Shown here: piece after piece, positions 1,600-25,657 of the stretch
How positions within the stretch are numbered: position 1 is the stretch's first letter
Layout of the letters: every line of letters starts with the position of its first letter
Origin: Tangfeifania diversioriginum
GTDB taxonomy: Bacteria; Bacteroidota; Bacteroidia; Bacteroidales; Prolixibacteraceae
Reading direction: 5' to 3'
Assembly: GCA_945873105.1 (NCBI GenBank)
Contig: CAMCBW010000029.1
Coordinates: forward strand, 9,091 to 73,090
DNA: 64,000 nt
Translations under genes and position numbers: made by a program
Notes under the pieces: generated by a model
The model's input: the letters and a program-made list of their open reading frames with translations, nothing else
Databases searched by the model: none
Told to the model about the DNA's origin: nothing

Positions 1600-2159
1600 A
1601 ATTCTACCACCTTTCTCTTGTCGGAATCATTCCAACCATTGATTCCAAAGAATCCTTTGATACGAAGGTTGATAAATTCAATCGGATAAATGATGACCAT
1701 CGTGTAGACCTCTTCCACGGTGAGTGTTTCGTTGAACTCTTCATTTCTGATGCCACTATCGATCACTTGCTGACAAAGAACTTCTATTTCACTCCGCTGC
1801 TGTTCCGATATTTGAAAATTGTAATCGTGCATAAGGACGTGAATAAACCTTATTTCATTTTGAGCGGTCTCCGCCAAAACAAACAGCTCTCCAATGAGCA
1901 ATTCGATCACCGATGTGATGGTTAATTCATGGTTTAAGAACTCTTTTAAATTGACAATCAAGTGATTAATTCTCCCGTACAGGAGGGAGGTGACCAAGTC
2001 TTGTTTGCTGCTGTAGAATCGGTACAGATAACCTTCAGCGACTCCTGCCTTGTTCGCGATGGCAGAAATCGAGGCTCCTCCATAGCCTTTTTCAACTACA
2101 AGTTCCAGGGTAGCTGCATGAATCCGTGCCAGCTTGCTTTCATCTACCAGTCGTGCCAT
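1578..2159 (-). CDS. TetR/AcrR family transcriptional regulator
   Basis: 193 aa with an N-terminal TetR HTH (GYGGASISAIANKAGVAEGYLYRFYSSKQDL). It heads the efflux gene. Confidence 0.88.
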   Translation of the reverse strand: MARLVDESKLARIHAATLELVVEKGYGGASISAIANKAGVAEGYLYRFYSSKQDLVTSLLYGRINHLIVNLKEFLNHELTITSVIELLIGELFVLAETAQNEIRFIHVLMHDYNFQISEQQRSEIEVLCQQVIDSGIRNEEFNETLTVEEVYTMVIIYPIEFINLRIKGFFGINGWNDSDKRKVVEFCINALK

Positions 2160-2424
2160 TGTGTGGTATTTATAAATGAGTGATTATTCATTCAAAATTC
2201 AAATGTATTTCACTTTGAAGTATCAACCAAATAATCGGGGTAATTTTCATTATTATTTAACACTGGGATTGGAGAGGATCTCCGCTGCCCATGGAGTCAT
2301 ATGGATTTGAAAATGCTTTCTTCTTATAGCATAACCCGAAAAAAATGGCACTGAAGCCAAAATGGGGCTTGGTAAGCATTTCAGGTTAGGTGGAAATTAA
2401 CCACCTTTGTAGATAGCAGATATT

Positions 2425-5400: not shown

Positions 5401-5772
5401 CTGTTGTATGAGGTATTGACCGACATTGGTGTGCAGTACCATGCTGATATAAATACCCCTGATCAAATGATTCTCATGCCGGATGAGCTTAAAAATGACA
5501 CTTTTTTAATATTGAAAGAGGCCGCTCACAATATCATTCGTCATGCAGATGCAAAAAATGTGACGTTTATTGCCGAAGTCAATGACCATATTTGTACCAT
5601 CAGTCTGATAGACGATGGAGTAGGTTTTGACGAGAAAAGCATCAAATTGGCTGTGTCTCACGGGAATGGGCTACTTAATATCCGTCAACGGGCCTTGGAG
5701 TCTAAAATTGACCTTGCCATACATACATATCCCGGGAAGGGCACCTTTATTCACATGGCATTCCAAATATGA
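2425..5772 (+). CDS. Sensor histidine kinase with an extracytoplasmic propeller-like region, 7 FG-GAP/VCBS repeats and an ASPIC/UnbV-like domain
   Basis: 1115 aa. Seven D-x-D/N-x-D-G-x-x-D Ca-binding FG-GAP motifs are present (ADFNGDQKIDIF, ADVDNDGDEDVY, ADVDLDGNVDLY, SDINQDGYPDLC, ADINNDGFPDLF, ADFDLDGYQDLY, ADFNNDGNNDIY). They are followed by NRDAIGAKIYLY...GGGGYASISAKEAIFPL (UnbV/ASPIC-like) and hydrophobic TM segments at about aa 830-900. Next come a HisKA_3 H-box (RDLHDDLASTLGS) and HATPase N/G boxes (HNIIRHA, DDGVGFD, GNGLLNIRQRA). The ORF-track start is TTG; an ATG lies 5 codons downstream. Confidence 0.85.
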   Translation: MNLFDMLKFSPHTKASCLLSRMLVLLGLFLQQQLLSAQPFVRVNSGTKSNILRINMLNEKEGFFLTDKVYSLGQGIEWKKAEINDNRSIALFSANSVNDFWYTTNLENSTSVIYHSKDGIVESMMGPFGVVVYSMHITPENVAFFSSSSEVAILEDGKFKRMDLVPSNSFVKKLIGKNSHLFWTLTNKAELFLYSGLKYKRVLTERRVTDFVLMDDKNGFALCGTEIVRFDGQESKSWMIHEEFGKAEKIYLAPNGDIWLLGASSKILRISNGKVEDLSTREKYQFTNLSFAGEGEVWISGSDGVLLYRGNKQFPPYETDNPGFSSFKLTNFGINLDNEYGVALADFNGDQKIDIFAVCISDFNRLFINTLIQGADSLTGVFFRDEGIIRKSEGTFDTKSESSYSALKLGVATADVDNDGDEDVYLCYLNAKNKLLLNNGNGIFRDVSDQPNRACENYRRSSAAAFADVDLDGNVDLYVTSENGSNKFFHNDGTGHFKDLTPDAGLETVSGGSCATFSDINQDGYPDLCVTFWYEKNRIYLNESWHGSVKFRDISDETDLAKSSPVKTNGATFADINNDGFPDLFIANKNEENKLYLNNGAGIFMDVTASYLEKNTYLSNGAVIADFDLDGYQDLYLSNIGSNILYKNISGLFFKDVTAYFGAEMSGYCTGAGVADFNNDGNNDIYAANFLGGSSKVFVNQSKNRQTIKVKLEGTHSNRDAIGAKIYLYAEDQETKKITLDGFQEISGGGGYASISAKEAIFPLRTGYKYFAIVKFPFPGSEKRIDNLEPGTLKVSEESGLDAFTVRFVKAIQRIVKDPDILKEYAKAGILLLLFFVYFRLFIHGRSRINWIRKISVVVIFVFSLFLNFFFLYSSSLLLFFVPTFISIVLLVITHLVTERIQIADEVSKQRLSLREKISRDLHDDLASTLGSIAIYADTMKRMTDPVLVEDSNLSSKIADLTQSALQSITDIIWMTSPRNDTLQGLLAKVNNLLYEVLTDIGVQYHADINTPDQMILMPDELKNDTFLILKEAAHNIIRHADAKNVTFIAEVNDHICTISLIDDGVGFDEKSIKLAVSHGNGLLNIRQRALESKIDLAIHTYPGKGTFIHMAFQI

Positions 5773-5786
5773 CCCCAAAGGGCTAT
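5766..5786 (+). repeat. 21-nt exact repeat AATATGACCCCAAAGGGCTAT, copy 1, containing the kinase stop codon
   Basis: Identical 21-mer to 6463-6483. The TGA of the kinase ORF is at 5770-5772, inside the repeat. Confidence 0.9.
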
Positions 5787-5828
5787 GTCCACTTCAAAAT
5801 TTAAATGGTTACTTAGAAAAAAAATGCA

Positions 5829-6458
5829 ATGGCTGTTTCCGTAGGTATTGTCGAAGATCATGCTGAGTTTAGAAAGAGCCTGGTCTTTTTGGTTTCATCC
5901 ATCGAGGATTACAAGGTTATCTGGTCATTTGGATCTGTCGAAGAGGCGATCGAAAAGGGATATACCCCGGATGTTGTTTTGTTGGATATTAATCTTCCCC
6001 GAATGACAGGATTGGAGGCTATCGCACTTTTTAAGAGCAAATGGTCGGATGCAAAAATAGTTATGCTCACCATTCTTGAAGATGAATACAATATTCTGAC
6101 GGCTATTAAGAATGGGGCAGATGGCTATATTCTCAAAAAAACCAATCCGCAAAAAATTTTGGATGCCATCCAGCAGGTTTTTGACGGGGGAGCTGCCCTG
6201 ACCCCGATGGTTGCCAAACAAGTGCTCTCTTTTTTCAAGGATGAAAAAAAGGAGCAAGAGCAAGCTTCGATTCTGACCAAGCGTGAGCAGGAAATTCTTA
6301 CCTGTATTGTCAGCGGATTGACCAATGATAAAATTGCTGCGATGTTGTTTATCAGTACCCAAACTGTTAGAAACCACATTAAGAACATTTACGAAAAGCT
6401 TCATGTGCATTCCAAAGCCCAGGTAGTTGCCAAAGCATTGAAAGAGAAAATGATTTGA
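5829..6458 (+). CDS. NarL/LuxR-family response regulator
   Basis: 209 aa. REC domain (VGIVEDH...VLLDINLPRMTGLEA...KIVMLT) plus a C-terminal LuxR HTH (LTKREQEILTCIVSGLTNDKIAAMLFISTQTVRNHIKNIYEKL). Confidence 0.95.
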   Translation: MAVSVGIVEDHAEFRKSLVFLVSSIEDYKVIWSFGSVEEAIEKGYTPDVVLLDINLPRMTGLEAIALFKSKWSDAKIVMLTILEDEYNILTAIKNGADGYILKKTNPQKILDAIQQVFDGGAALTPMVAKQVLSFFKDEKKEQEQASILTKREQEILTCIVSGLTNDKIAAMLFISTQTVRNHIKNIYEKLHVHSKAQVVAKALKEKMI

Positions 6459-7915: not shown

Positions 7916-8433
7916 GAAATTTGCCGCATACTATTTCAACAAGGTCAACTTTGCTCTTCGTTCCAATTTTTTGAGCAGAATAGGCTAAAGATATTCGCAT
8001 TCAGTCTTCTTTTCGAAGACCAGGAGGCGACTAAACCCACCACCAGGAGAATCTGCAAGGTGGCTTACGGCAGAGGAGTAATCTACACCAATGGTGCCGT
8101 AAGCCCCTTTCTCTCCATCGATCCCTCAAATGGCACCCGGTGCCAAATCATCGTAAAATTCCGTTGCTATTTTGGTGGTTTTTTCCATCGATTTTGCATA
8201 GGTGATTATTGTACAAATAATTGCGTCGCTTTTTATTCTTTCCGACGCTGGCCTCCTTGCGCGATATTGTTCACAACTTTACAGATCAAAGTAATTTGAA
8301 TCTGCGGCATTCCATTTTGCTTCTAATTTAGTACCTTGCAATAGCTATTTCAATGCGGTAAAACCACATTCGGATTTCAGGTATGGAAGAGAAGGATGAT
8401 ATTCAGGTCGTAAATCACATTAATTATCAAAAT

Positions 8434-9849
8434 ATGAAGAAAGTATTGTTTCTTGCCTTTTTGTTGGCAATGCTTCTATGTCAAACGAATGGAGCTTTTG
8501 CAGAAGTGCGCCTCCCTTCAATCCTTGGAAGTCACATGGTGCTTCAACAAAAAAGTGAAGTCAATTTGTGGGGATGGTGCAATCCATCCGAGAAGATTCA
8601 GGTGAAATGTTCCTGGGATACCACCAGTTACAGCACCAAAGGCACTTCGGGTGCAAAATGGAGCCTGAAGATCAAAACACCTGTAGCGGGAGGACCATAT
8701 ACCATCACCATCAACCAAAAGATGCTCCTGGAGGATGTGATGGTCGGTGAGGTTTGGCTCTGCGGAGGACAAAGTAACATGGAATGGAGCGGTGTACAGA
8801 AATTGAAACAATCTTTGGAGGAGGCACCTTTGGCGACCAACCAAAAGATTCGCTTTTTTTATGTACCCAAGGCGACTGCCGACACACCCCAGGAAGATAC
8901 CAGGGCAGGCTGGAAAGTTTGCACTCCCGATGAGATGGTTCGATTCAGTGCCATTGGCTATTTTTTTGGCAAGAAACTGCAACAGGTGCTGGATTTGCCG
9001 GTGGGCCTGATCAACAGCAACTGGGGAGGAACCCCTGCTGAAACCTGGACTCCCAGGGAGGTGGTTGAGCAAGATCCTGTGCTGAAGGAAGCCTCCCTTA
9101 AACTTCGCCCAGCAGATGGATGGCCGATCACACCCGGATCCAGCTACCAGGCAATGATTGCCCCCCTGGTTAAATTCAAAATTGCTGGAGTAATATGGTA
9201 CCAGGGGGAGAGTAACACCCAAAACTATCCCTCCTATTCCCATTTGATGGAGCGAATGATAGGGTCGTGGCGAGCCTCCTGGGCAGATAATTTTCCATTT
9301 TACTTTGTTCAGATTGCCCCATTTTCCTACGGATTTTACAATGTAGGAGCGCTGATCAGGGAGCAACAGACGAAATGCCTCACCATTCCTGCTACAGGAA
9401 TGGTTGTGGTTCACGACCTGGTGGACGATGTCAACAACATTCACCCGGTGAAAAAACGTGAAGTGGCCCTGCGACTGGCCGATCTGGCATTGGCCGAAAA
9501 TTATGGTGCTAAGGGTGTTGTATACAAATACCCCATGTACAAAGGTATGGTCATCGAGAAAAACCGGGTTCGTATTCTTTTTGACAATGCGGAAAATGGA
9601 CTTGTCGCAACTGACAAGGTCCCCAACGAATTCTATGTAGCAGGCACTGATCAAAAATTTTTGTACGCAAATGCAAGAATTGAGGGGAAAAGTGTAGTCG
9701 TTTGGAACAAAGCGGTGAAGGAACCTGTTGCTGTAAGGTTTGGATTCAGCAATACCTCTGTTCCCAACCTCTTTAACAAGGAGGGAATGCCCGTAAATTT
9801 GTTCCGTACAGATCAGTGGGAGGTGAAAACCGAGGCGGTCGTAAAATAG
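8434..9849 (+). CDS. Sialate O-acetylesterase family (SGNH/DUF303) protein
   Basis: Signal peptide MKKVLFLAFLLAMLL. Catalytic-serine block WLCGGQSNMEW, then NSNWGGTPAE and VIWYQGESN blocks typical of sialic-acid 9-O-acetylesterases. The ORF opens at 8383, but the Met at 8434 precedes the signal peptide. Confidence 0.82.
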   Translation: MKKVLFLAFLLAMLLCQTNGAFAEVRLPSILGSHMVLQQKSEVNLWGWCNPSEKIQVKCSWDTTSYSTKGTSGAKWSLKIKTPVAGGPYTITINQKMLLEDVMVGEVWLCGGQSNMEWSGVQKLKQSLEEAPLATNQKIRFFYVPKATADTPQEDTRAGWKVCTPDEMVRFSAIGYFFGKKLQQVLDLPVGLINSNWGGTPAETWTPREVVEQDPVLKEASLKLRPADGWPITPGSSYQAMIAPLVKFKIAGVIWYQGESNTQNYPSYSHLMERMIGSWRASWADNFPFYFVQIAPFSYGFYNVGALIREQQTKCLTIPATGMVVVHDLVDDVNNIHPVKKREVALRLADLALAENYGAKGVVYKYPMYKGMVIEKNRVRILFDNAENGLVATDKVPNEFYVAGTDQKFLYANARIEGKSVVVWNKAVKEPVAVRFGFSNTSVPNLFNKEGMPVNLFRTDQWEVKTEAVVK

Positions 9850-13881: not shown

Positions 13882-14319
13882 ATGCCGATGAAGAGCTACG
13901 ATCCCCAGATGCATTCAGCCGAGCACATCCTGAACCAGACCATGGTCCGGCAGTATGGATGTGAACGATCTTTTTCCAGTCATATCGAGAAGAAAAAGTC
14001 AAAATGTGATTACCATTTCGACAGACCGCTAACGGTAGAGGAGGAGCTTGCGCTTGCCGGTCAGGTCAACCAAATCATCAGCGGTAACCATTGTATCACA
14101 GAGCAATTGGTGGCAATGGAAGAAGCAATGCATACCTTTAACCTGAAGAGGTTACCTGAAGCGGTAGGTAGTTTCGTTCGAATAGTCTCCATTGGGGATT
14201 ACGACCACTGTCCATGTATTGGCCCACATGTTCAGAATACTTCTGAAATAGGTGTTTTCCAACTGGTTTCAACCAGTTTTGAAGAGGGCATTTTGCGGAT
14301 TCGTTTCAAACTGAAGTAG
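13882..14319 (+). CDS. AlaX-type alanyl-tRNA editing domain protein (tRNA_SAD)
   Basis: 145 aa with Zn-binding motifs HxxxH (HSAEH) and CxxxH (CPCIGPH), characteristic of Thr/Ala-tRNA synthetase editing domains. Confidence 0.8.
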   Translation: MPMKSYDPQMHSAEHILNQTMVRQYGCERSFSSHIEKKKSKCDYHFDRPLTVEEELALAGQVNQIISGNHCITEQLVAMEEAMHTFNLKRLPEAVGSFVRIVSIGDYDHCPCIGPHVQNTSEIGVFQLVSTSFEEGILRIRFKLK

Positions 14320-14328
14320 AAAGATTCC

Positions 14329-17300
14329 ATGGAAAACAACGGTGGTCTCAAGATTTACAAGGCATCTGCAGGATCCGGTAAAACCTTCCTACTGGTAGAG
14401 GCCTACCTGAAGATGTTGTTCGCCAATCCGCATTCCTACCGCAATATTCTTGCAGTAACTTTTACCAACAAAGCAACTTCTGAGATGAAGGAAAGGATAC
14501 TGAAAGAACTTGCCAATCTTGCGGCAGGCAGGGGTTCAGGCTATTCCGAAACCTTGAAGGAATTTGGCAGTGAGTTGAAAATCAAGAGCCAGGCATCGTT
14601 GATCTTGAAAAAAATCTTACACGATTATTCGCGGTTTTCCGTCATGACCATTGATAGTTTCTTCCAAAAAATCATCAGGTCTTTTGCCAGGGAGATACGG
14701 TTAAATGCCTCTTTTAAAACGGAGATAGACAATAAGCAGGCGATGGAAGACGCCATCGACCGGTTGTTTCAGGAGGTTGACAGCAATGAGTTGCTAATGG
14801 ACTGGATGATGCAATTTCTGGAGGAGAATCTGGATGACGGCATCAGCTGGGACTTTAGAAAGGAGCTGGTAAAATTTGGGAGGGAGGTTGAGAAAGAGGC
14901 CTTCAAGGTTCATGGAGATGAATTTCTGGATACCCTCACCGGGAAGGAGAAATTAAGTGGGTACATCAGTGAGGTCAAACAAGCCGGAAATGCAGCCGAA
15001 ATGCATTTGAGATCATTGGGACAGCGGGGAATTGTGTTGATGGCAAACGCTGGAATAGCCTACGACCAGTTTAAGTCAGGAAGAAACTCCTTTGCCAACC
15101 TTTTCAATAAACTGGCCAACGGGAAGTTTGATATCCCGGGAAAAACTGTCCTGGAAGCTTGTGACAACCTGGAAAACTGGTTTAAAAAAACGGATACACC
15201 ACAGTTCAAAAAGCAGGCAGAGGAGCTGTACAACAATGGTTTGAACAGCTTGCTGAGAGAGTCAATTGAGGCATTGGATCATCAAATGTGTATCGTCAAC
15301 AGCTGTCAGGCCATCCTGAAAAACATCTACCCTTTTGGCCTTTTGGGAAATATAGCATTGAAGATAAAAGAGGTTCTCCGAGAAAAAAATACGGTGTTGC
15401 TGAGTGATTCTGGCCGGATGATCGGCCGGATCATTGATGGGAATGATACCCCTTTCATTTATGAGAAGGTAGGATTGATTTACCGCTATTTCATGCTGGA
15501 TGAGTTTCAGGATACCTCCAGACAGCAATGGGATAATTTTAAACCGCTGATAGAGAATTCTTTGGCGTCAGGATATCCCTCTTTGGTGGTGGGTGATGTC
15601 AAGCAATCAATTTACCGATGGAGGAACGGAGACTGGAATCTGTTGGCAAACCAGCTGGCGGAAGATCTGCGCCACCAAAATGTTACCGTAAAGAATTTGG
15701 AGAAAAATTGGCGAAGTGGTAAGAGTATCCTGGATTTTAACAATTCACTCTACAGGTTTGCGTCGCAATATCTGAACGACTACATCAAATCAGAAACCGA
15801 TGAACCCGGATATGCAGCACTTCATGGGGTAATCGCCAGTGCTTATGAAGGGCATTACCAGGAGAAAGCCCTGTCCGGATCAGCGGATGGACTTGTGGAG
15901 ATGCGATTCATTGAACCGGATGGAACAGCAAGCAAAGGAGCATTCAGGGAGAAAGCATTGAAGTTGCTCATGGAGGAGTTGGAAAGGGTTCAGATCGCAG
16001 GTGTAAAAGCTGAGGATATTGCCATTTTGGTAAGGGAAAATTCTGAAGCCGGATTGATTGCCAATGCGCTATGGGAAAGGAAAAAATGTGCTGCTGTGCC
16101 AGGGTGCAGCTACGATGTAATTACCAGCGACACCCTTAAAATAGGGCAATCCACTGTGGTGGGTTTTGTCGTCAATTTCATGAAATTTTTCCTTCGACGG
16201 GATTCATTGCAGCTGCGGGGAGAACTGTTGTATACTTACTACCGGATACTGCAACCCCTGATGATCCAGGATAACCAGAGTTCCCCCAAGGATCTTCATG
16301 AACTTTTCGATGCTGAAAATCCTTTGCCTGACCTTTTCCGGGAGTGGCTGGAAATGAATCCTCAGTCGGATTTTCAGAATGGTTTGCTTGCCTTGCCTTT
16401 GTATGAGCTTGCGGTGTCGGTGATCGAACATTTTGCCCTGGGAAAGATGACAGGAGAGAAGGTTTACCTGCAGGCTTTTCTGGATATGGTACTCGAATAC
16501 GGAAGGGAGGAGAGTGGCGGCATTCCTGGATTTCTTTCGTGGTGGGAGGTAAGCGGAAGTAACAAAACTTTGAATCTTTCCAATGTAAAGAATTTTATAC
16601 GGATCTCTTCCATTCACCAATCCAAGGGGTTGGAATACCACACCCTGTTTATCCCGTTCTGCAATTGGGAAATTGGATTGAATTCAAGAAAGCCGAATTA
16701 CATTTGGGCATTCCCTGGAGCAGCACCATTCAATGGACTTTCCATGGTTCTTTTAAAATGTGATCCACTGCTGAAAAATTCAATTTTTACCTACGACTAT
16801 TACCATGAATTGCTATACAGCATCATGGACAATCTTAACCTGCTCTATGTAGCTACTACCAGGGCCATCCATAACCTCTACCTGATCCTTCCTTACAAGG
16901 AGGGAAAACAAAAGACCAGCAATGTTGCTGAGTTGATCCAGGAACTGGTAGAGTCTCCTTACCAGGAAGATACTGTTGACAAGCAGAAATTCAGGGATTT
17001 GGGAGCCTTTTGGGATCCCGGCCGCAAGTATTTTAAGCTGGGATCACTGGTCTCCTCTGCCAAGGATCCCAAAATGGAGATAGACCTGCAACATGCCGGT
17101 GAACCTTTGATACTCAACCCCAACAACAGAATGAAGATCCGGTTGCACAGCAAGGACTATTTCCAGCTTTCGGGTGATGATAAGAATCAAAGAATCAATC
17201 AGGGAAATATGATGCACCAACTTTTTGAAAGAATAAAAAGCCGGAAGGATGTTGGAAATGCTGTTGCACAAATGGTTGCAGAGGGATTTCTAACAGCGCC

Positions 17301-17738: not shown

Positions 17739-18227
17739 ATGGCAAGAAAGATCTTAAATCCTTACCTGACTTCTGGTCGGAAGGATTACCACTGTTTTGG
17801 TTGTTCTCCCAACAATGACAAGGGTTTGCAGTTGAAATTCGAATTGGATGGAGACGAGGTGGTTGCAGTCTGGAATCCCCAAAAGTGGGCAGAAGGCTTT
17901 CGGAATGTTTTGCATGGTGGCATTCAGGCGGCCCTGCTGGATGAGCTCTGCAGCTGGGTCGTCCAGTCGCTTGGCAAGACGGTGGGCGTAACAACCTCTA
18001 TGGAGATCAGTTACAGGAAGGCGGTATTGATCAGTGACGGAGCGATTGTTTTAAGGGCAAAAATGACCGAGCAAACGACCCGGATGGCATTTGTCGAGGG
18101 TCGATTGCTTGGCAACGATGGAACCGTATGCGCTACGGCAAAATGCAAATTCTTTTTATTCCCTGTCGACAAGGCCATGTCTGAGTATGATTATCCGGGG
18201 GCGGAGGCATTTTTTGAAGAAGCATAG
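17739..18227 (+). CDS. PaaI-family hotdog-fold thioesterase
   Basis: 162 aa with an N-terminal CFGCSPNNDKGL motif and the catalytic-region motif VLHGGIQAALLDE. Confidence 0.72.
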   Translation: MARKILNPYLTSGRKDYHCFGCSPNNDKGLQLKFELDGDEVVAVWNPQKWAEGFRNVLHGGIQAALLDELCSWVVQSLGKTVGVTTSMEISYRKAVLISDGAIVLRAKMTEQTTRMAFVEGRLLGNDGTVCATAKCKFFLFPVDKAMSEYDYPGAEAFFEEA

Positions 18228-18326
18228 GGCAGAGAGCATAGGGCAGAGAGCATAGGGCATAGAGTTAGCCCATGCCCCATGCCCCATGCCCCATGCCCCA
18301 CGCTCCATGCCCCACGCCCCATGCCC
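18222..18326. repeat. Inverted pair of tandem word arrays: (GCATAGGGCAGAGA)x3, then (CCCATGC)x8
   Basis: The left arm 18222-18263 begins inside the thioesterase stop codon (TAG at 18225-18227). The right arm 18268-18326 is partly complementary to it (GCATAGGGC versus the reverse complement GCATGGGGC). Confidence 0.85.
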
Positions 18327-18448
18327 TGGTACAAAGCCATTGGCAGCCTTCAGAAACCTTTGCCTAATGTTACAATTGGGTTTGGCAACGATAAAAATTG
18401 CCATACGGAGCGCAAACCAGAATAGTGATAGGAACTCTTCTTTGGACT

Positions 18449-18679
18449 GTCACACCAGAATCGTAGACAATCACTCCTGCTCCATCGAAGGTCATACCTG
18501 AATCATAGACAATCCCTCCTGTTCCATCGAAGGTCGTACCTGATTCGTAGACAGTTATACCTGAATCATTGACAGTCATCCCTGAGTCATAGACAGTCAT
18601 CCCTGAGTCATAGACAGTCATCCCTGAATCGTAGACGGTCACTCCTGCTCCGTGGTAGGTCATACCTGGATCATTGACA
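18449..18679. repeat. 21-bp tandem repeat, 11 units, two alternating subtypes
   Basis: Units such as gtcatccctgagtcatagaca (two exact adjacent copies at 18575-18616) alternate early in the array with atcactcctgctccatcgaag. Only one minus-strand frame is open, giving the 97-aa ORF 18370..18663 with heptads MTVYDSG. Confidence 0.9.
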
Positions 18680-18745
18680 GATACTTGTCATTTCCCGAAG
18701 GGGGGGGTGTCGTTTTGCCCCCTCCAGCCCAATGATTTTTCTTAC

Positions 18746-19486
18746 TTATTGTGGCTGTGGTGTTCCCGGTGTGACGGGCATATCTGCCTCTTTTTTTGAA
18801 ATGCGTCGTACCCGTTTTTTCAGTGCGGCGAGGGTATATTCCTGTTGTTTTACCGCATCCTTGCCCTGGTACAGGATTTTTCCGATTCGTAAAATCTCTG
18901 TTAACTGACTGTTCAGAACGTTTAGGGTTTCAACATTGCTTTGCACCAATGCTTTCCGGTTCGTAAGGATTTGGTACTGCAACTGCCGGTCGGTGTTTAA
19001 GGAAGCATGAGCATTCAGTAGTTTGGTCTCCAGCAATTCGGTAAATCCTTGTTCGGCAAGGGCCGCCTTGTAAGTCGCTATGTTTTTGTTCACCTCTGTC
19101 ATTCGGTCTAGCACCTTTTCCGGATCTCCGTTGTTGATTCCTTTCCGCAACTCAGAGAGTCCGAAATCGGCAGCAGAGAGGTTAATGCTGCTGCCGGCCA
19201 TTTTGAGGTAGCCCCCCAGATGTTTGACATGGTCCAGTACATCATTCATCCCCGAATAGATCCTGTCGGTAATTTTTTTCATCTCGGCGGTCTCCGAAGC
19301 GGGGGAAAGTAATTCTTCAACTTTGGCAATTCCGGATTCGAAAGTAGCCAGGTAGGTTTCGCCCAACTTTGGCGAGTAAGCAGTAAAATCGGCCAGGTCG
19401 CGTCTCAGGCTAATCGCTGAAAACCTGCATAAAACAGCCAATTCTTCGTCTTTGCAATTGTAACTGCGGTTCATGTTCAAGTTCAT
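18746..19486 (-). CDS. Hypothetical protein (helical, no recognised motif)
   Basis: 246-aa ORF with host-like base composition. No catalytic or recombinase motifs were seen. Confidence 0.5.
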   Translation of the reverse strand: MNLNMNRSYNCKDEELAVLCRFSAISLRRDLADFTAYSPKLGETYLATFESGIAKVEELLSPASETAEMKKITDRIYSGMNDVLDHVKHLGGYLKMAGSSINLSAADFGLSELRKGINNGDPEKVLDRMTEVNKNIATYKAALAEQGFTELLETKLLNAHASLNTDRQLQYQILTNRKALVQSNVETLNVLNSQLTEILRIGKILYQGKDAVKQQEYTLAALKKRVRRISKKEADMPVTPGTPQPQ

Positions 19487-20191
19487 TTAAAATAAATTTA
19501 AGGGATTAATAATAAATGTTTGAGAACTATAGGATGGTTAAACCCGTTGGTCAGCGAGTGACTTTAATCCACCTTCTGACATACTTCGCTTAACGTATCA
19601 TTCCGGAGTTGTAGTAAGTTCTGAATCAGCGATGATGGGTAACGCTTGTGTTGAAATTCGAAGGAACCGGATTATTGCAGGGGCCAATTTGACAACCAGG
19701 TAAGCGGTCGGTAGCACAAAGGGCAGCTGAGTGCCGTTTTCTGTATATTAATACCCAAATGGGGCGAGAGGTTACCCTCAAAATGAGAAAAAAACAAAAT
19801 GGTCATTTAGGGCGTTGCCGGAATGCACCTCCTTCATTTCCGTAGCCCGAAGGCTAAGGCTAGTCAGGTCGGTCGAATAACGAAACCGCAACAATCGAAA
19901 TGACATGTATTTCGCAAAATGGTAATTGACTAGCAACGCCATTTATGGCGGTGTTTTTATGGCGTTGACCAAATACACCCCTATTCCGCCAAGGCTTTAG
20001 CCGAAATATTGGCAGTTACCAACCGTGCCCAACCCAGGCATGTCCGGCACATTTTCCCTTTCTAAAGCTTTGGTATTCAAATATTATTAGGTAAGTTTAT
20101 CGTGCCTGTAACACCCAACAAACCTGCCTCAATTTATCGCAAATCACAGTCTAAACCTAGGCTTGTAGTGGGTATATAAGAGCTAGGCGTA

Positions 20192-20962
20192 ATGCTATGT
20201 AACAAAATAACATTAATTGACATGAGAAATTTTAGTGAATTTGAGAAGAAAATAATTAATAAGTTAATTGCTATTGATCCCAAAAATTCAAATGCTGGAA
20301 CTTTCATTGCAGACACAATCCTTGAAAATAGGGGCATTAAGATAGAAGAAGAAGAAAGAATTATATCTCTTTGGTATCTAAAAACTGATAAAAATGCCAT
20401 AAGCGAGTTTTTTGAATTGATATCAGTATTAAACTATTTAGAAAAAAACGATTTAATTTTCATTCATTCAAATCTGGAAAGACCAATAGGGACAAGAGAT
20501 TTTCTTACAAAGAATATTGACCAGCCTTATTTTGACAGCAGAAACGGCGACTTAATGAGTATGCCAATTCCCACTGACATATTTGACCGAATCGTAAGAT
20601 ATTTAAGAAGTTATTTAATTTGTGGGACAGAGATAAAAGTATTAGTTACGAATGAGTTTAAAACACAAGAACAAATAGACCATGAAGCCGAAATGAAAGA
20701 AGCTATTTCGCAGACGAGGCTTTCGAGGTACTCACTTTATGTTGCCTTTGCTGCTTTAGCATTTTCATTTTTATCACCATTAATTTTTGACTCAACAATA
20801 GACAAAACTCAAATAAACAAAATAAACACTGCTGATCAGGCCCAAGTTGACAACTTAGTAGACATTAAAAAATTTCTAAAAGAAAGTATTGACTCAATGC
20901 ATAAACAATCACATAGGCCTAACAGCACTTTTCCAAAAGCGGGGCAGACAAAAGTTAAATGA
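20192..20962 (+). CDS. Hypothetical protein with one C-terminal transmembrane helix (orphan island gene)
   Basis: 256-aa AT-rich ORF with a TM segment (SLYVAFAALAFSFLSPLIF) near the C-terminus. No recognisable motif. The start may be the Met at 20222. Confidence 0.55.
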   Translation: MLCNKITLIDMRNFSEFEKKIINKLIAIDPKNSNAGTFIADTILENRGIKIEEEERIISLWYLKTDKNAISEFFELISVLNYLEKNDLIFIHSNLERPIGTRDFLTKNIDQPYFDSRNGDLMSMPIPTDIFDRIVRYLRSYLICGTEIKVLVTNEFKTQEQIDHEAEMKEAISQTRLSRYSLYVAFAALAFSFLSPLIFDSTIDKTQINKINTADQAQVDNLVDIKKFLKESIDSMHKQSHRPNSTFPKAGQTKVK

Positions 20963-20988
20963 AGATTCGTACAACTAATAAATTTTGT

Positions 20989-21048
20989 GGTAACTTGACA
21001 GGATAGTGTTCTGAAAGCCCCGCCTTCGCCAAGCCGAAAACCGTTATG
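20989..21048 (+). repeat. attC-like spacer J1 (about 60 bp)
   Basis: ggTAACTTGACAGG...GCCCCGCCttcgCCAAGCCGAAAACCGTTAtg. TAAC and GTTA termini, CTTG/CAAG pairing next to the termini, and a GCCCCGCC box. Confidence 0.35.
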
Positions 21049-21142
21049 TGCAATTGTACGACGCTTTGTCGAGCGGTTTTTGGTTGATAAATAGGCTAAA
21101 ATATTTTCATTTGAATTGCATTGATTAGAAGCCATAAAACTT

Positions 21143-21150
21143 TAAATTTG
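21143..21150 (+). promoter_or_regulatory. Bacteroidota-type -7 promoter box TAAATTTG
   Basis: Matches TAnnTTTG, 21 nt upstream of the methyltransferase ATG. Confidence 0.5.
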
Positions 21151-21170
21151 AGATTTAATAAAGTAAATCC

Positions 21171-22148
21171 ATGGAGAGAATAAAATTTATAGATCTATTT
21201 TGCGGAATAGGAGGCTTCAGAACTGCAATGGATCAAGCCTGCATCGAGAATGGACTCATTCCTAACTGTGTGTTTTCATCAGACATTGACACATTTTGCC
21301 AAGACAGCTACGAAGCAAATTTTGGACATAGACCGGCAGGAGACATAACCAAAATCGACGAAAAAGATATACCTGATCACGACATTCTTTTTGCAGGTTT
21401 TCCATGCCAGCCATTCAGTATAATTGGACAAATGCAAGGTTTTAACGATATTCGTGGCACTTTATTCTTTGACATTGCAAGGATTATAAAACATAAAAGA
21501 CCAAAAGCCTTTATCTTAGAAAATGTAAAGCAACTTGTTGGACACGATGGGGGTAAAACACTAAAGACTATCATAAAAACTTTAGAAAAGGAATTAGGTT
21601 ATAATGTGCAATTTGCGGTATTAAATGCACTTGATTACGGACTTCCACAAAAGCGCGAACGTGTTATCATAGTTGGACACCGTGAACCTATAATGTTTAG
21701 TTATCCATCGCCTGTCAGACCTTTTAAACCACTTTCAGAAATCCTTGAAACAAAGGTTGACAAAAAGCATTTGGCATCTGATTACATTGTACAAAAACGC
21801 AAAGACAAACATAATTCGGCTTATCCGCTTTCTATTTGGCACGAGAACAAAGCAGGTAATATTTGCTCATATCCATATTCTTGTGCTTTACGTGCAGGAG
21901 CCTCTTATAATTATTTACTCGTAAATGGAGAAAGACGATTGACTCCAAGAGAAATGCTTCGGTTACAAGGATTCCCAGACAGTTATAAAATAGTAGTAGC
22001 TGATGGACAAGCCAGAAAACAGGCTGGGAATGCTGTTCCTGTTAATATTGTTAAAGCAGTTATTTTAAAATTACTTCCGTTTGTTGCAACCTCATTGGAT
22101 ATGACTTCGGTTTTAAGAGAATATGAAGTAAGCTATGGAAAACGATAA
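21171..22148 (+). CDS. DNA (cytosine-5)-methyltransferase
   Basis: Motif I FIDLFCGIGGF, motif IV FAGFPCQPFS, motif VI ENVKQL, motif VIII QKRERVIIVG, motif IX RRLTPREMLRLQGFPDSY and motif X GNAVPVN. The segment YLLVNGERRLTPRE resembles the M.HhaI-type region before motif IX. Confidence 0.93.
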   Translation: MERIKFIDLFCGIGGFRTAMDQACIENGLIPNCVFSSDIDTFCQDSYEANFGHRPAGDITKIDEKDIPDHDILFAGFPCQPFSIIGQMQGFNDIRGTLFFDIARIIKHKRPKAFILENVKQLVGHDGGKTLKTIIKTLEKELGYNVQFAVLNALDYGLPQKRERVIIVGHREPIMFSYPSPVRPFKPLSEILETKVDKKHLASDYIVQKRKDKHNSAYPLSIWHENKAGNICSYPYSCALRAGASYNYLLVNGERRLTPREMLRLQGFPDSYKIVVADGQARKQAGNAVPVNIVKAVILKLLPFVATSLDMTSVLREYEVSYGKR

Positions 22149-22887
22149 AGCACCAAAACTACGAACTGTAAATAAATCCGTTTCGGCCTTCCCCTTAAAT
22201 GAGTTTCCCAAAGAGTTTCCTTATCTACTTGGCAAAGAGTTAATCTACTTGCTTGCTTCAAAAGGGAAGCCTGAACTTGAAGGCTCAGAATGGGAAAATA
22301 TTTTCGCAAACTGTATTGGTGCAGACTGGAAGCCATCCAATGTTGGACTTGACGATGTTGTAATGGGCAATACTGCTTGGGGTGCAAAAACTGTAAAAGC
22401 AACCAATCCATCCACACAAAAAAAGGTGAGATTAATCTCTGGTCGTAATTCTCCAAATTATTCATTTGGGGAACGTAGTGATCAGGGAGCAGATGCACAG
22501 CTAATTGGTAAGCTTGTTCTTGAGATTTGGAATGAAAGGGTTTCTTCAATTCGTGAAAAGTATAAACATTTGAGAACAATCGTTCTTCTCAAATCCAACG
22601 ACCTTTCAGAAGTTGTAGTCTTTGAATTCGATACGATTCGTTACGACCACGAACTTTATAATTGGGAATGGAACAAAAACAATAACTTAGTTGGAACTCA
22701 CAAACAGACTGGTGAACATTGTTTTACTTGGCAACCACACGGCTCACAATTTACTATTATCGAAGACGTTCCAGCTAAAAGTTTGGTGATAAAGATCAAA
22801 CAACCTCCAATTTTAGACAAAGTAAAGATACTAACAGCCCTTGGATTTGATAATACTTGGATTACGATAATTCACAAAAATGACTGA
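22135..22887 (+). CDS. Putative type II restriction endonuclease (partner of the m5C methyltransferase)
   Basis: 250-aa ORF that overlaps the methyltransferase stop by 14 nt and has the same AT-rich composition. No family motif was recognised, so the call is by position only. Confidence 0.5.
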   Translation: MENDKAPKLRTVNKSVSAFPLNEFPKEFPYLLGKELIYLLASKGKPELEGSEWENIFANCIGADWKPSNVGLDDVVMGNTAWGAKTVKATNPSTQKKVRLISGRNSPNYSFGERSDQGADAQLIGKLVLEIWNERVSSIREKYKHLRTIVLLKSNDLSEVVVFEFDTIRYDHELYNWEWNKNNNLVGTHKQTGEHCFTWQPHGSQFTIIEDVPAKSLVIKIKQPPILDKVKILTALGFDNTWITIIHKND

Positions 22888-22927
22888 CACGCTTAGGAGA
22901 AATCTTAAGAAAAATTAGCAACAGCCC

Positions 22928-23053
22928 ATAACTTCAGCTACCCGTCAAGCGCGGCAGCAGTGGTTTTCGGTGGGCATCTTTCCGCCCGGTCATCTTTTCG
23001 GCTTGACAGGAAATCGCCCGCAATCCGCCCCTGCGTGTAGCTTCCTACTTTAC
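22928..23053 (+). repeat. attC-like spacer J2 (about 126 bp, degenerate 3' end)
   Basis: The 5' end is cATAACttcAGCTAC and the 3' end is GTAGCTtcctacTTTAC. There is an internal 9/10 inverted repeat CCCGTCAAGC (22941-22950) / GCTTGACAGG (23001-23010). It shares TTGACAGG and TTTTCGGCTTG words with J1. Confidence 0.3.
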
Positions 23054-23063
23054 TAGTAAGTAT

Positions 23064-23576
23064 ATGACACGACAGCTCATACATAGAATTTTTGCTTGGA
23101 CAATAGACTTTGGAATTATTGTTTTGTATGCCATTTTGCTTTTCGCAGTGACGAGCTTGTTCTTTGACGTTAGACAAGCAGGCTTGAACCCATATTTCGG
23201 ACAGCTAATCGGCTTTTTGACATTGACATTGCCAGTAATAACCTATTCGTATTTGACAGAGAAAGGTAATTGGAAAGCGACCATCGGAAAAAGAGTACTT
23301 AATTTGATAGTTTTGACTCCTGAAAATAAGACGAACAAGAGCATTTTGATAAGGAATCTATTGAAATATTTACCTTGGGAACTTGCTCATACGGGAGTTC
23401 ACTGGATTATCTATTTTGAATCAGTTGGTAGAGAAACACCAATTTGGACATGGATTATTCTAATTGTGCCACAAGTTTTGGTGATTGTTTACTTTATTAG
23501 CATAATTCTTAGTAAGGGACAGGCCAGTGTTTATGACAGGATTTCAGGAACAAGACTGCAACTTAGAACTGTTTGA
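23064..23576 (+). CDS. RDD-family membrane protein
   Basis: 170 aa and multi-TM. It has an N-terminal R...IDF motif (HRIFAWTIDFGII), a central GKRVLNL and a C-terminal YDRISGTRL, as in RDD-domain proteins. Confidence 0.65.
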   Translation: MTRQLIHRIFAWTIDFGIIVLYAILLFAVTSLFFDVRQAGLNPYFGQLIGFLTLTLPVITYSYLTEKGNWKATIGKRVLNLIVLTPENKTNKSILIRNLLKYLPWELAHTGVHWIIYFESVGRETPIWTWIILIVPQVLVIVYFISIILSKGQASVYDRISGTRLQLRTV

Positions 23577-23594
23577 TTGGAAGAAATACCTACT

Positions 23595-23723
23595 GGTAAC
23601 AGCACATTTGCAACAGGCTGGGTTTCGTGCTCCGCAAACAGTTTTGTGGTACCGGAAATTCTGTGCTCCGCATCATCATTTGCGGTGAAAAGCCCGCCCA
23701 TCGCAAATCTGCAAAACGTTATG
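23595..23723 (+). repeat. attC-like spacer J3 (about 129 bp)
   Basis: ggTAACagcacATTTGC...AAGCCCGCCcatcGCAAATctgcaaaacGTTAtg, with an internal stem CCGCAAA / TTTGCGG and a duplicated GTGCTCCGCA. Confidence 0.38.
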
Positions 23724-23782
23724 AGTCATAGTCGAGAAAATCATAATCTGAAAACAGTTTCTATATAACGAAACTTTTTATA

Positions 23783-23790
23783 TATCTTTG
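23783..23790 (+). promoter_or_regulatory. Bacteroidota-type -7 promoter box TATCTTTG
   Basis: Matches TAnnTTTG, 21 nt upstream of the toxin ATG. Confidence 0.5.
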
Positions 23791-23810
23791 CTGTATCAAG
23801 AATCATGTGA

Positions 23811-24170
23811 ATGGACAATTTTTTTGACATTGTATTATTAGATGAAGCATATGAATTTCTCAGTAATCTTGAAAAGAAACACTACGAAAAGATCCTTTTT
23901 AATATTCGTAAAGCTCAGACAAGGCAAGATCCAGAACTATTCAAAAAACTGAAAGATGAAATCTGGGAATTCAGAACGCTATATCAAGGAATACATTACA
24001 GATTGTTTGCATTTTGGGACAAGACTAATATTGGAAATACCCTTGTTATTTCAACACATGGAATAGTCAAGAAAACCAGTAAAGCTCCTGATAGCGAAAT
24101 CCATAAAGCAAAACAAATACGATCACGATATTTTGAAGACAAAGAAACCGCTAAAACGACAAAGAAATGA
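23811..24170 (+). CDS. higB: RelE/HigB-like (Gp49-type) toxin
   Basis: 119 aa and basic. It lies upstream of, and overlaps by 4 nt, an XRE-HTH gene, which is the HigBA gene order. The core WEFRTLYQGIHYRLFAFWD is typical of Gp49/HigB toxins. Confidence 0.7.
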   Translation: MDNFFDIVLLDEAYEFLSNLEKKHYEKILFNIRKAQTRQDPELFKKLKDEIWEFRTLYQGIHYRLFAFWDKTNIGNTLVISTHGIVKKTSKAPDSEIHKAKQIRSRYFEDKETAKTTKK

Positions 24171-24481
24171 AAACACATACTTTAGACGAAGTCCAGGATA
24201 AACTTATCGGTAAAATTGGTACGCCCAACCGAGACCGATTTGAATATGAATTACAAATGGACCTAATTGGCCAAGCCATAAAACAGACTAGACAGGAGCG
24301 AAAATTAACCCAGGAAGAATTAGGTAAACTCATTGGGGTACAAAAAGCTCAAATATCAAGAATTGAAAATAATGCCAGCAATGTTACTATTGAGACCCTT
24401 ATGCGGGTATTTAATGCTTTACAGGCTAAAGTAATGTTAAGTGTTGAATTGCCTCACTTCAAAATCAGTCTGGGGCAATAA
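24167..24481 (+). CDS. higA: XRE-family HTH antitoxin (HigA-like)
   Basis: 104 aa with the HTH LTQEELGKLIGVQKAQISRIENN. Confidence 0.8.
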   Translation: MKTHTLDEVQDKLIGKIGTPNRDRFEYELQMDLIGQAIKQTRQERKLTQEELGKLIGVQKAQISRIENNASNVTIETLMRVFNALQAKVMLSVELPHFKISLGQ

Positions 24482-24490
24482 CTACGGCCC

Positions 24491-24614
24491 ATAACAAACG
24501 CCAAATTCCATAGGGGGTCAATAGATCATATTCATTTACTCCTGCCAGAAACACAAACCAAACTAAAACTAACAAACATCATAAACCCGCCCGGCGTTTG
24601 ACGTCAAAACGTTA
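24491..24614 (+). repeat. attC-like spacer J4 (about 124 bp)
   Basis: ATAACAAACGCC...AACCCGCCcGGCGTTTGacgtcaaaacGTTAaa. AACAAACGCC pairs with GGCGTTTG, and the spacer begins 10 nt after the antitoxin stop. Confidence 0.4.
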
Positions 24615-24786
24615 AAAAAAGCACTACCGCTAATAACTAAGGCTTCGTGTGGTTGAGGGAGGAAACCCAATGGAAAGCCCTGTTGCACGGAATTTGTGCC
24701 TGGGAGTGGCATCAAATCAAAAATTCCAGAAAATTCGCCTAATAAATGAGCTGAAATTCTGAATCAGGATAGGCATCAGCCTAGAT

Positions 24787-25389
24787 TCACACCGTCAGGA
24801 TAAATGTCACCAGAAACGGCACCAATATGGTAAGAACAATTCCGCTGAAAACGGCTATAACTGCATAGGATTTGCCAGAGTATCTGGTGATAACCGGCAA
24901 GGTGGTATCCATGGCAGTGGCCCCCCCCGAGGCTATTCCTGCCAGGTTGCCAAAATATCTTACCAGGATGGGTGTAAGCAGTAAAGTGGCTACTTCCCTG
25001 AAAATATTCGATAGCAGCGCCACAACCCCCAATGAATGACTGTGTAGCTGTGTGATAAATACACTGGAGAGACTGTAATACCCAAAGCCTGCTCCAACTG
25101 CCAGTGTTTCGCGCAGGGTGAGGGAGGGCAAGAGAAGTGCCGCCAGTGCTGACCCCATCATCGTGCCTGTCACGATGGTTACGGGCACCCAAATGATCTT
25201 GTAATTGTGGGAGGCAAGGACACTCCATGAATTTTTGTCACTACCGATGCTGATACCGGCCAGCAACATCAATAGGTAGAGCGCATAACTGCCAAGTTTG
25301 TCAAAATCAAAGCCTGCTGGCAACTTCCCGGAGAGTCCGGCAAAAACCCCGGCAACAAAGAAGCCAAAAATGATAAGGCTACTTTTCAT
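24787..25389 (-). CDS. LysO-family (DUF340) membrane protein, large part
   Basis: Multi-TM protein starting MKSSLIIFGFFVAGVFAGLS. It is paired with a 92-aa DUF340-like ORF upstream, the usual two-gene arrangement. The ORF opens at 25464, but Met 25389 is preferred. Confidence 0.65.
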   Translation of the reverse strand: MKSSLIIFGFFVAGVFAGLSGKLPAGFDFDKLGSYALYLLMLLAGISIGSDKNSWSVLASHNYKIIWVPVTIVTGTMMGSALAALLLPSLTLRETLAVGAGFGYYSLSSVFITQLHSHSLGVVALLSNIFREVATLLLTPILVRYFGNLAGIASGGATAMDTTLPVITRYSGKSYAVIAVFSGIVLTILVPFLVTFILTV

Positions 25390-25657
25390 GCTTAAAGAAT
25401 AGGCGTTTAAAGAGGAAATAGGAGAGCAGCACGCTTCCTGCAATCGAGAGCGACGCAATGGCAATGGCTTCCAAACCTATTTTACCAAGGTTCCGAATGA
25501 CCTCCTGGTTGGTCCCCACTGAAATCCCCAACAAAAAGAGCAGGAGATAAATGGCCCAGTTCAGCAAGTTGTTGTTGATGACATGGAGCCTTGGATAACT
25601 TATGATCAGCAGTCCCAGCACAATTCCGGCGGATAGTAACAGCAAGATGGTAATCAT
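25379..25657 (-). CDS. LysO-family (DUF340) membrane protein, small part
   Basis: 92 aa with 3 TM segments. It overlaps the downstream partner by 11 nt. Confidence 0.6.
   Translation of the reverse strand: MITILLLLSAGIVLGLLIISYPRLHVINNNLLNWAIYLLLFLLGISVGTNQEVIRNLGKIGLEAIAIASLSIAGSVLLSYFLFKRLFFKHEK

Follow-up and report, generated by a model that had tools for sequence, protein, structure and literature searches.

Integrons, and attC-site clusters that have no integron integrase (CALINs), are well known and have already been listed for Bacteroidota. Insertion sequences of the IS1111-attC group and group IIC-attC introns insert specifically into attC sites, and the Xer-dependent pdif modules of Acinetobacter plasmids carry 28-bp duplex XerC/XerD sites that alternate in orientation. 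From complete Bacteroidetes genomes essentially only In0 has been reported, plus one complete integron in Salinibacter (PMC9024848). Here we describe an island of accessory genes in a stretch of 64,000 nucleotides from Tangfeifania diversioriginum (Bacteroidales; Prolixibacteraceae), positions 9,091 to 73,090 of contig CAMCBW010000029.1 in assembly GCA_945873105.1, hereafter called the window. At 20.0–24.6 kb of the window, this island is probably a CALIN-like, integron-type array of four cassettes served by a tyrosine recombinase that would act in trans and cross over at G|TT.

Structured sites and the cassettes that carry them

The island lies in the 6.56 kb between a thioesterase gene (17739–18227, + strand) and lysO (24787–25464, − strand). 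An initial annotation of the window, made from sequence alone, had described it as an AT-rich set of co-oriented open reading frames (ORFs) and had read the spacers between them, J1 to J4, as attC sites of an integron cassette array. Our ORF call confirmed six + strand ORFs at 20.2–24.5 kb, the GC content is 0.30–0.39 in the island and 0.45–0.50 in its flanks, and the spacer letters quoted in that annotation match the sequence.

The structure of the sites was worked out on 14 elements from four other arrays (L066, L068, L070 and L071), aligned end to end with no sequences from the window. TAAC is invariant in 14/14 of these elements and so is GTT, the base after it being A in 12 and G in two. 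The consensus structure is xxTAAC-A-[20-bp helix]…[20-bp helix]-AAAAC-GTTAxx, in which 80.9% of cells are paired, as against 64% in shuffles. Pairs changed on both sides number 17; counted over the 20 helix pairs, 15 are changed in this way. The covariation score is 0.402 compared with 0.126 for shuffled alignments, a value reached by 0/500 shuffles, and controls with slid partners scored 0.02–0.08 (at most 0.084). The imperfect hairpin, with its L''/L' pairing, is kept by selection. One helix position never pairs and is a candidate extrahelical base.

A covariance model of this alignment, R2, was thus trained on other genomes only. In the window it matched all four spacers on the + strand with the right boundaries; the matches to J1, J3 and J4 are significant and that to J2 is weak. 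Over 867 kb of fetched loci R2 gave 45 matches at E≤0.1, all in array- or element-bearing loci, and at the same threshold it gave none in about 500 kb of array-free loci (L004–L006, L011–L034). The spacers are structured sites with TAAC and GTT inverse cores. Each pairs end to end as one hairpin, without separate subterminal hairpins, and an inverse core R'' and a core R' stand at the two ends of the sites, the 3′ core of J2 being mutated.

J1 had been taken as a 60-nt spacer at 20989–21048, which turns out to be its 3′ half only; it is 135 nt long because the R2 match spans 20916–21050 (68.2 bits, E=2.9e-12). Its R'' GCCTAAC (20917–20923) falls inside the end of the first ORF and its R' is GTTATGT (21043–21049). 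An element that follows an SMR gene in another locus (L060) matches the 3′ half at 87% identity. J3 (23593–23725; TAAC 23597–23600, R' GTTATGA 23718–23724) gave the best score, 75.7 bits with E=7.5e-14, and J4 (24488–24618; TAAC 24492–24495, R' GTTAAAA 24611–24617) matched at E=0.011. These three spacers bear out the TAAC...GTTA termini originally proposed. J2 (22925–23056; TAAC 22929–22932, E=2.6) does not: it runs from TAAC to TTTAC, and position 23049 is T where the three other copies have G, a G>T mutation. Those copies, which read CCTAC|GTTAAC, CCTAC|GTTGGC and CCTAC|GTTGTG, are 86–90% identical to J2 and lie in two further loci (L009, L035) and in a phage-like contig from IMG/VR (L058). 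J4 has five copies, 79–82% identical, after unrelated ORFs in L009, L036 and L037. Copies of both J2 and J4 follow unrelated genes, and homology ends at xAAC on the left and at GTT on the right. Their consensus folds are whole-element hairpins, of 35 pairs for J2 and with 16 closing pairs for J4, and both families are too conserved for covariation to be visible in either. Folding the bottom strands of J1–J4, a check proposed with the initial annotation, succeeded in part: J3 was significant (z=-2.55) and the other three were not. Single-sequence folding was therefore dropped as a test, and the structure rests on cross-family covariation. A word search of the window for CAAAACGTTA was by itself not above chance.

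Other loci bear on where such sites occur and how they may be lost. The phage-like contig (L058, UViG_3300027792_000002, 64.6 kb) carries three attC-like elements on its + strand, at 2197–2327, 3004–3137 and 3573–3704, among small minus-strand ORFs; cassette sites may also reside in viral DNA. One upstream cassette is shared, at 90% identity, by L009 and L036: in L009 (17858–17872) a full J4 site closes it, and in L036 (1950–1973) a collapsed TACAACAAAC|GTTATAG junction without the hairpin, which would be a deletion of the site between two AAAC repeats.

The third cassette of the window (23050–23718, + strand), an ORF for an RDD-family membrane protein (23064–23576) followed by J3, is the best-documented mobile unit. 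Homologs of its protein, 80–98% identical, are named from Saprospiraceae, Flavobacterium, Galbibacter and Bacteroidia. We compared seven loci (L065–L071) from six other arrays, which with the window make eight contexts. Nucleotide identity of the cassette to these loci is 84–96%, and it is 92.5% over 650 nt to a metagenome-assembled genome (MAG) of Saprospiraceae; the cassette is also present in a Galbibacter isolate, in an array of at least 22 genes over 16 kb. Among the genomes with such arrays are Galbibacter sp. EGI 63066 (GCA_026241135.1) and the Saprospiraceae MAG GCA_016714315.1. All seven contexts are long co-oriented arrays, and no integrase was found within 5–10 kb of the cassette in any of them. 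Homology starts at (G)TTAC(C/T)AGTAAGTATATG in the window and in 6/7 of the other loci, immediately behind another, unrelated element whose 3′ end reads …CAAAAC, …CCAAAC or …CCTAC. In L070 and L071 a segment of about 130 nt separates the upstream element from ATTAGCAG. In every context the RDD ORF carries ACCTACTG[G/C]TAAC, the 5′ core of the site that follows it. L070 and L071, which are 99.8% identical over a shared 8 kb, differ by three indels, two of which have one breakpoint at G|TT. An integron cassette is organised in just this way: the RDD ORF and its downstream site move together, bounded on the left by the GTT core, and this linkage, with its junction at G|TT of the preceding site, argues against spacers that insert themselves.

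Two RDD loci hold further features. In the Saprospiraceae array L066 (5514–6731), the RDD site resembles J3 for about 150 nt only, and the match to the 3′ part of J3 resumes some 970 nt on, after an ORF that by eye resembles a hydroxylase or desaturase; either a cassette is nested here or the site has received an insertion. In L065 a repeated module of 700–1100 bp stands before most genes (1–1109, 1989–2712, 5166–5966 and 8096–8788). It consists of tandem short repeats (GACAACCAC..., CGACCTTCAGAC...) and a conserved promoter-like segment, and is unlike the attC-like sites.

The other three cassettes are likewise on the + strand. Cassette 1 (20181–21043) holds J1 and a gene for a predicted membrane protein of 246 or 256 aa (20192 or 20222 to 20962), which has a 90% identical homolog in another gene context. 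Cassette 2 (21044–23049) encodes a type II m5C DNA methyltransferase (21171–22148; PF00145 6.9e-89, TIGR00675, PADLOC MTase_II 1.6e-109) and, overlapping it by 14 nt, a 250-aa ORF (22135–22887) that is probably the restriction partner of the methyltransferase, followed by J2. Cassette 4 (23719–24611) encodes a HigB/Gp49-like toxin (23811–24170; PF05973 1.5e-17) and an XRE-family antitoxin (24167–24481; PF01381 3.3e-13), whose genes overlap by 4 nt, and ends in J4; a toxin-antitoxin pair 57–60% identical to this one stands among different neighbors in the L009 array. Searches of Pfam, NCBIfam and PADLOC upheld the cargo first assigned to the island (methyltransferase, RDD protein, toxin and antitoxin) and gave no family match for the 246/256-aa or the 250-aa ORF. 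The type II toxin-antitoxin genes, and likewise the type II methyltransferase gene and its putative restriction partner, are paired and overlapping, and toxin, antitoxin and methyltransferase have the expected domains; restriction-modification, toxin-antitoxin and small membrane proteins are cargo typical of cassettes.

These data suggest a route by which the island could have been assembled. Each cassette comprises one or two ORFs and then a site of about 130 nt, downstream of a promoter-bearing leader. The site would fold as a single strand, xxTAAC-A-[long imperfect helix]-loop-[helix]-AAAAC-GTTAxx, and a tyrosine recombinase that works in trans on sites so folded would insert cassettes and excise them, with a crossover at G|TT as for IntI. 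The gene for this recombinase would lie at another place in the genome or on some visiting element. An excised circle would join R' to the start of the cassette, for example as ...CAAAAC-G|TTACCAGTAAG.

The leader and the thioesterase–lysO hotspot

We compared the interval in 15 related genomes with syntenic thioesterase and lysO genes, a comparison that had been suggested for the initial reading. It measures only 11–190 bp in seven relatives (L004, L005, L006, L011, L015, L016, L017). Four others (L003, L008, L010, L012) have it filled with 1.6–4.9 kb of entirely different AT-rich co-oriented ORFs, and L009 has no less than 4.3 kb there, oriented the opposite way, so that occupied intervals, with the window counted, range from 1.6 to 6.6 kb. 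L007 and L014 are occupied too, their contigs ending within the interval. Among sequences of Prolixibacteraceae, CAXXMN010000001.1 has an occupied site and OY760498.1 an empty one. The contents of the hotspot turn over between species. In the flank, a helicase/nuclease-like protein of 1097 aa shares 86% identity with that of an 'uncultured Tangfeifania' MAG and 62–67% with those of other Prolixibacteraceae. In this interval the closest relative, L002 (12181–13991; 86% identity in the flanking protein), has in common with the window only a homolog of one 246-aa ORF outside the array (described below) and two short non-coding stretches; its other content is different, a sign of fast turnover.

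Directly before cassette 1 lies a leader, or platform, of about 170 bp (20012–20180, + strand). It is 73–87% identical to the region before the first ORF in six relatives (L003, L007, L008, L010, L012, L014), is common to every occupied site with a + strand array, and is missing from the empty sites of the relatives compared. It begins with a palindrome (20012–20028) of the type GCGGTTAC[C/A]AACCGC. The initial annotation had taken this sequence for a weak copy of a spacer's 3′ half ending at 20018; it is not a spacer half but the leader palindrome of occupied hotspots. A promoter of the Bacteroidota type follows, judged by eye against the −33/−7 consensus: TTTG at 20069–20072 and, paired with it as a TAnnTTTG-like −7 element, TAAGTTTA at 20092–20099. 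The leader ends in ...GTATATAAG, just 5′ of cassette 1. Its end is AAAC|GTT in 2/7 loci and AAAC|GAT or other in the rest, with no intI attached. The leader end is a candidate attI with a G|TT crossover, a reading that only those two loci fit.

The leader palindrome, ATGCGGTTAC(A/C)AACCGCAT, is found again upstream of other promoters in L003 and in L037 and L038 (~4675–5250); in L038 the gene that follows is UvrA-like by eye. The L003 copy (14373–14427) adjoins the gene of an IS200-like Y1 transposase (13955–14389, − strand; PF01797 5.3e-22). The palindrome could be a repetitive extragenic palindromic (REP)-like element or an operator.

Other features lie at the edges of the interval. A long hairpin (18214–18317), directly 3′ of the thioesterase gene, marks where the variable interval begins on the left; it is the sole Rfam match at E≤1, and then to generic microRNA-hairpin models only. 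At Rfam gathering thresholds nothing was found in the window, and a tRNA scan of the window found none. At the position of the hairpin, relatives have GGATAAAG-type short repeats that pair with inverted copies 5′ of lysO; these repeats stand at both edges even of empty sites. Between the hairpin and the next ORF, tandem repeats at 18370–18680 can be read as MTVYDSG-like pseudo-ORFs. That ORF, of 246 aa (18746–19486, − strand), is within the variable interval and outside the cassette array; it has no confident family match, and a 47% identical homolog occurs at the same place only in L002, the closest relative. At the right edge, the tail between the last element of the island and the lysO stop codon (24694–24786, + strand) has a counterpart, at 87% identity, at that position in L010 alone. 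The DNA of the window is also present in ENA assembly ERZ27280308, where contig k141_767445 belongs to an array-bearing MAG.

Canonical attC sites and rival explanations

We compared the sites with canonical attCs by means of a proxy model, R1, built from 18 real attCs of class 1 and Pseudomonas-type integrons in plasmids. R1 is narrower than the model of IntegronFinder. It recovers all real attCs at E≤2e-6 and, in answer to the attC-model check proposed at the outset, detects no Bacteroidota element at E≤10. In the reverse test, 4/6 of the best R2 matches in integron DNA were true attCs at their exact coordinates, with E values of 1.6–4.5 only. At the sequence level the 3′ ends are alike, real attCs reading …GCCCGCCCC-TTAACC-AAAC|GTTAG and J3 reading …GCCCGCCC-…-CAAAAC|GTTATG. 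The inequality of inner and outer box spacers noted in the initial annotation is real: in the training consensus a single nucleotide (A) makes up the R-L spacer on the 5′ side, and that on the 3′ side is AAAAC, 5 nt long, as against about 5 and 5–6 nt in canonical sites. Other family members also have the longer 3′ spacer, and the 18 canonical attCs, measured alike, have near-equal ones. A hand-written scorer of L boxes and spacers was discarded as not discriminating, because shuffles often scored as high even for real attCs.

The search for an integrase confirmed that none is in view. No tyrosine recombinase was found among the 300–420-aa ORFs of the window that were tested, and neither the 64 kb nor the roughly 1 Mb of fetched loci contains an IntI. 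The recombinases seen in other arrays scored 164–200 bits on TIGR02249, below its cutoff of 265 bits, and are without IntI1 residues 208–250. We rejected the idea that one of these tyrosine recombinases found within arrays is the cognate integrase: they belong to a multicopy insertion sequence (IS) and have no IntI domain, and therefore give no evidence for an integron integrase. A CALIN calls for at least two co-oriented attC sites within about 4 kb. With four co-oriented sites within 3.7 kb and no integrase nearby, "CALIN-like" is a fair description, although attC status depends on the model used.

Several observations weigh against an integron-type array served by an IntI-like enzyme. The proxy model fails, the spacer geometry is unequal, and IntI is absent from the DNA searched; the arrays of L068, L069 and L070 also begin beside housekeeping genes with no integrase. 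The junction of leader and cassette 1 is GTT in only two of seven loci. One of the deletions between L070 and L071 has neither end at a core site, high-identity mapping of boundaries covers one of the four window cassettes (RDD), and most cassettes seem by eye to have their own Bacteroidota promoter. The original reading as integron cassettes and attC sites stands for the modular array, the structured TAAC/GTT sites and the RDD unit, and is not established as regards the canonical model match and the geometry. We consider the integron-like reading largely right: the sites act like attC and have attC cores. Their membership of the family by the standard model is not proven.

The strongest alternative is that this is a real cassette array served by a recombinase other than IntI, for example a Xer-like one, making it a Bacteroidota-specific analogue of integrons with sites that are not canonical and, at chromosomal hotspots, promoter platforms that have no integrase. 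The failure of the canonical proxy favors it, as do the 1 versus 5 nt spacers with the helix position that never pairs, the absence of IntI beside any of about 10 arrays, and array-borne tyrosine recombinases without the IntI insertion. The report of In0 and almost no complete integrons in complete Bacteroidetes genomes (PMC9024848) points the same way. We nevertheless think it unlikely, because the xAAC/GTTR cores, the AAAC|GTT junction and the types of cargo are as in IntI systems, a multicopy IS accounts for the Xer-like genes seen, and the search for IntI covered the window and about 1 Mb of fetched loci, not whole genomes.

That IS bears on a second alternative. Sixteen nucleotides after J4 lies a 63-nt element, E5 (24631–24693, + strand), which is not a cassette site but a solo remnant of the oriIS-side end of an IS91-family element. 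E5 is present in 11 metagenome contigs, and its 17 aligned copies have a mean column identity of 81%. We had entertained E5 as a minimal attC of 58 nt and gave this up, since independent IS copies show it to be an IS end. Full copies of the IS lie in L035 (~688–3117), L060 (~3911–6359) and L059 (~3900–6340), with a diverged copy in L062. The element is about 2.4 kb long in L035 and L060, with a 304-aa Xer-like recombinase upstream of a Y2 transposase (NF033538 1.6e-127, PF04986, PF14319). It starts with GTTGCACTAAATCCC and a hairpin and ends with the E5 hairpin and TTAGTTATTA; the reverse complement of E5 closes the copies in L035, L059 and L060, and the ori end of L062 has diverged. Four independent copies with the same ends, different flanks and no target duplication define these termini. 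The IS has the Y2 HUH transposase, subterminal palindromes, absence of duplication and multiple copies of the IS91 family. Its recombinase has more than 6400 homologs, most of which, among the matches listed, are on contigs of a few kb or less. In 4/4 full copies (L035, L059, L060, L062) the IS has an attC-like element as its immediate neighbor, whose R'' end it touches, and it appears to target such sites. This is a second, independent sign that the hairpins are used as single-stranded DNA structures. No match to J4 together with E5 was found in a plasmid collection, and scans of viral contigs found no E5, no J4 and one copy of J2.

The spacers themselves might be non-autonomous insertions of the HUH type (IS91, IS200/RAYT) or miniature inverted-repeat transposable elements (MITEs) in an ordinary island, with TAAC and GTT as remnants of target sites. 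That E5 is an IS91-family end and that full IS copies abut the elements would fit this, and so would the AAAC at both ends of J4 with the L036 junction that lacks J4 (CAACAAAC|GTTA), the Y1 transposase gene in the L003 hotspot, and the J2-type and two R2-type elements amid opposite-strand ORFs of the phage-like contig. Yet the RDD ORF keeps its site core over eight contexts while its upstream neighbors vary, the break falling at the GTT core in seven, and pairing runs end to end as one hairpin rather than as separate subterminal hairpins. J1–J4 show no target duplications, and the 5′ core of J3 stays linked to the RDD ORF from context to context, unlike dispersed MITE- or REP-like repeats, whose insertion does not depend on the genes around them. 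R2-type and J elements were found in accessory-gene arrays and phage-like DNA and in none of the ~500 kb of non-array loci, and 15/17 E5/J2 copies are co-oriented with the gene upstream. We therefore regard such insertions as an improbable source of the spacers.

That the island is an ordinary horizontally acquired one, with GC-rich spacers that are terminators or regulatory hairpins, we hold to be very improbable: every spacer does follow a transcription unit and can form a hairpin, and the cassettes have promoters of their own by eye, but terminators would not be 80–90% conserved across classes after unrelated genes, nor would they keep xAAC/GTT cores or mark exact homology breakpoints.

Comparison with known systems

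Arrays of the type that we read as CALIN-like were met in at least four families or classes of Bacteroidota, and one cassette is common across class boundaries at 92–96% nucleotide identity. If standard tools miss the sites, surveys overlook a large mobile gene pool in a phylum dominant in the environment and the gut, and this pool would include defence, toxin-antitoxin and beta-lactamase-like genes. More speculatively, and doubtful in our own estimation, Bacteroidota might own an integron-like system with sites of distinctive geometry, integrase-less platforms and a non-classical trans-acting recombinase, its cassettes exchanged across classes and its sites targeted by a dedicated, parasitic IS91-family element with a recombinase. 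If true, this would mean exchange among Bacteroidia, Saprospiria and Flavobacteriia that integron finders miss. The arrays offer a concrete system in which to ask what recombinase acts on arrays without an integrase, and to what extent the geometry of attC can drift. In the literature we found no description of these sites, of an integrase-less leader platform or of a site-targeting IS91-recombinase element.

The closest likeness is to CALINs and sedentary arrays such as the Vibrio superintegron with its VCR-type attC sites (PMC4889954, PMC9024848). Both have co-oriented short ORFs and palindromic sites, namely imperfect palindromes of 60–140 nt with xAAC...GTTR cores and a boundary at G|TT. 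In both, the sites of a lineage are similar whatever the cargo, the cargo includes toxin-antitoxin, restriction-modification and small accessory genes, and an adjacent integrase may be lacking. Unlike those arrays, the sites described here are undetected by the proxy attC model and have R-L spacers of 1 versus 5 nt, most cassettes seem to have their own promoter, and a conserved leader with a promoter and without intI occupies a fixed chromosomal hotspot in several species, in a phylum from which complete integrons are almost unreported.

The IS91-family element, every full copy of which adjoins an attC-like element at the latter's R'' end, recalls the IS1111-attC elements. It differs from these, which use a DEDD transposase, and from the group II introns, which use a reverse transcriptase, in that it encodes a Y2 HUH enzyme and a Xer-like recombinase. 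The pdif modules resemble the present cassettes in being small accessory modules, toxin-antitoxin pairs included, that lie between short recombinase sites and are reshuffled without a dedicated adjacent integrase; the sites here differ in being hairpins of about 130 nt, all in one orientation. One-ended rolling-circle mobilisation by ISCR/IS91 elements (PMC13181058) is similar in its lack of target duplication, its ends defined by a tetranucleotide (GTTx), its palindromic ends and its accessory genes. Such mobilisation accounts for E5 and not for the J sites, which pair end to end and travel with the ORF upstream.

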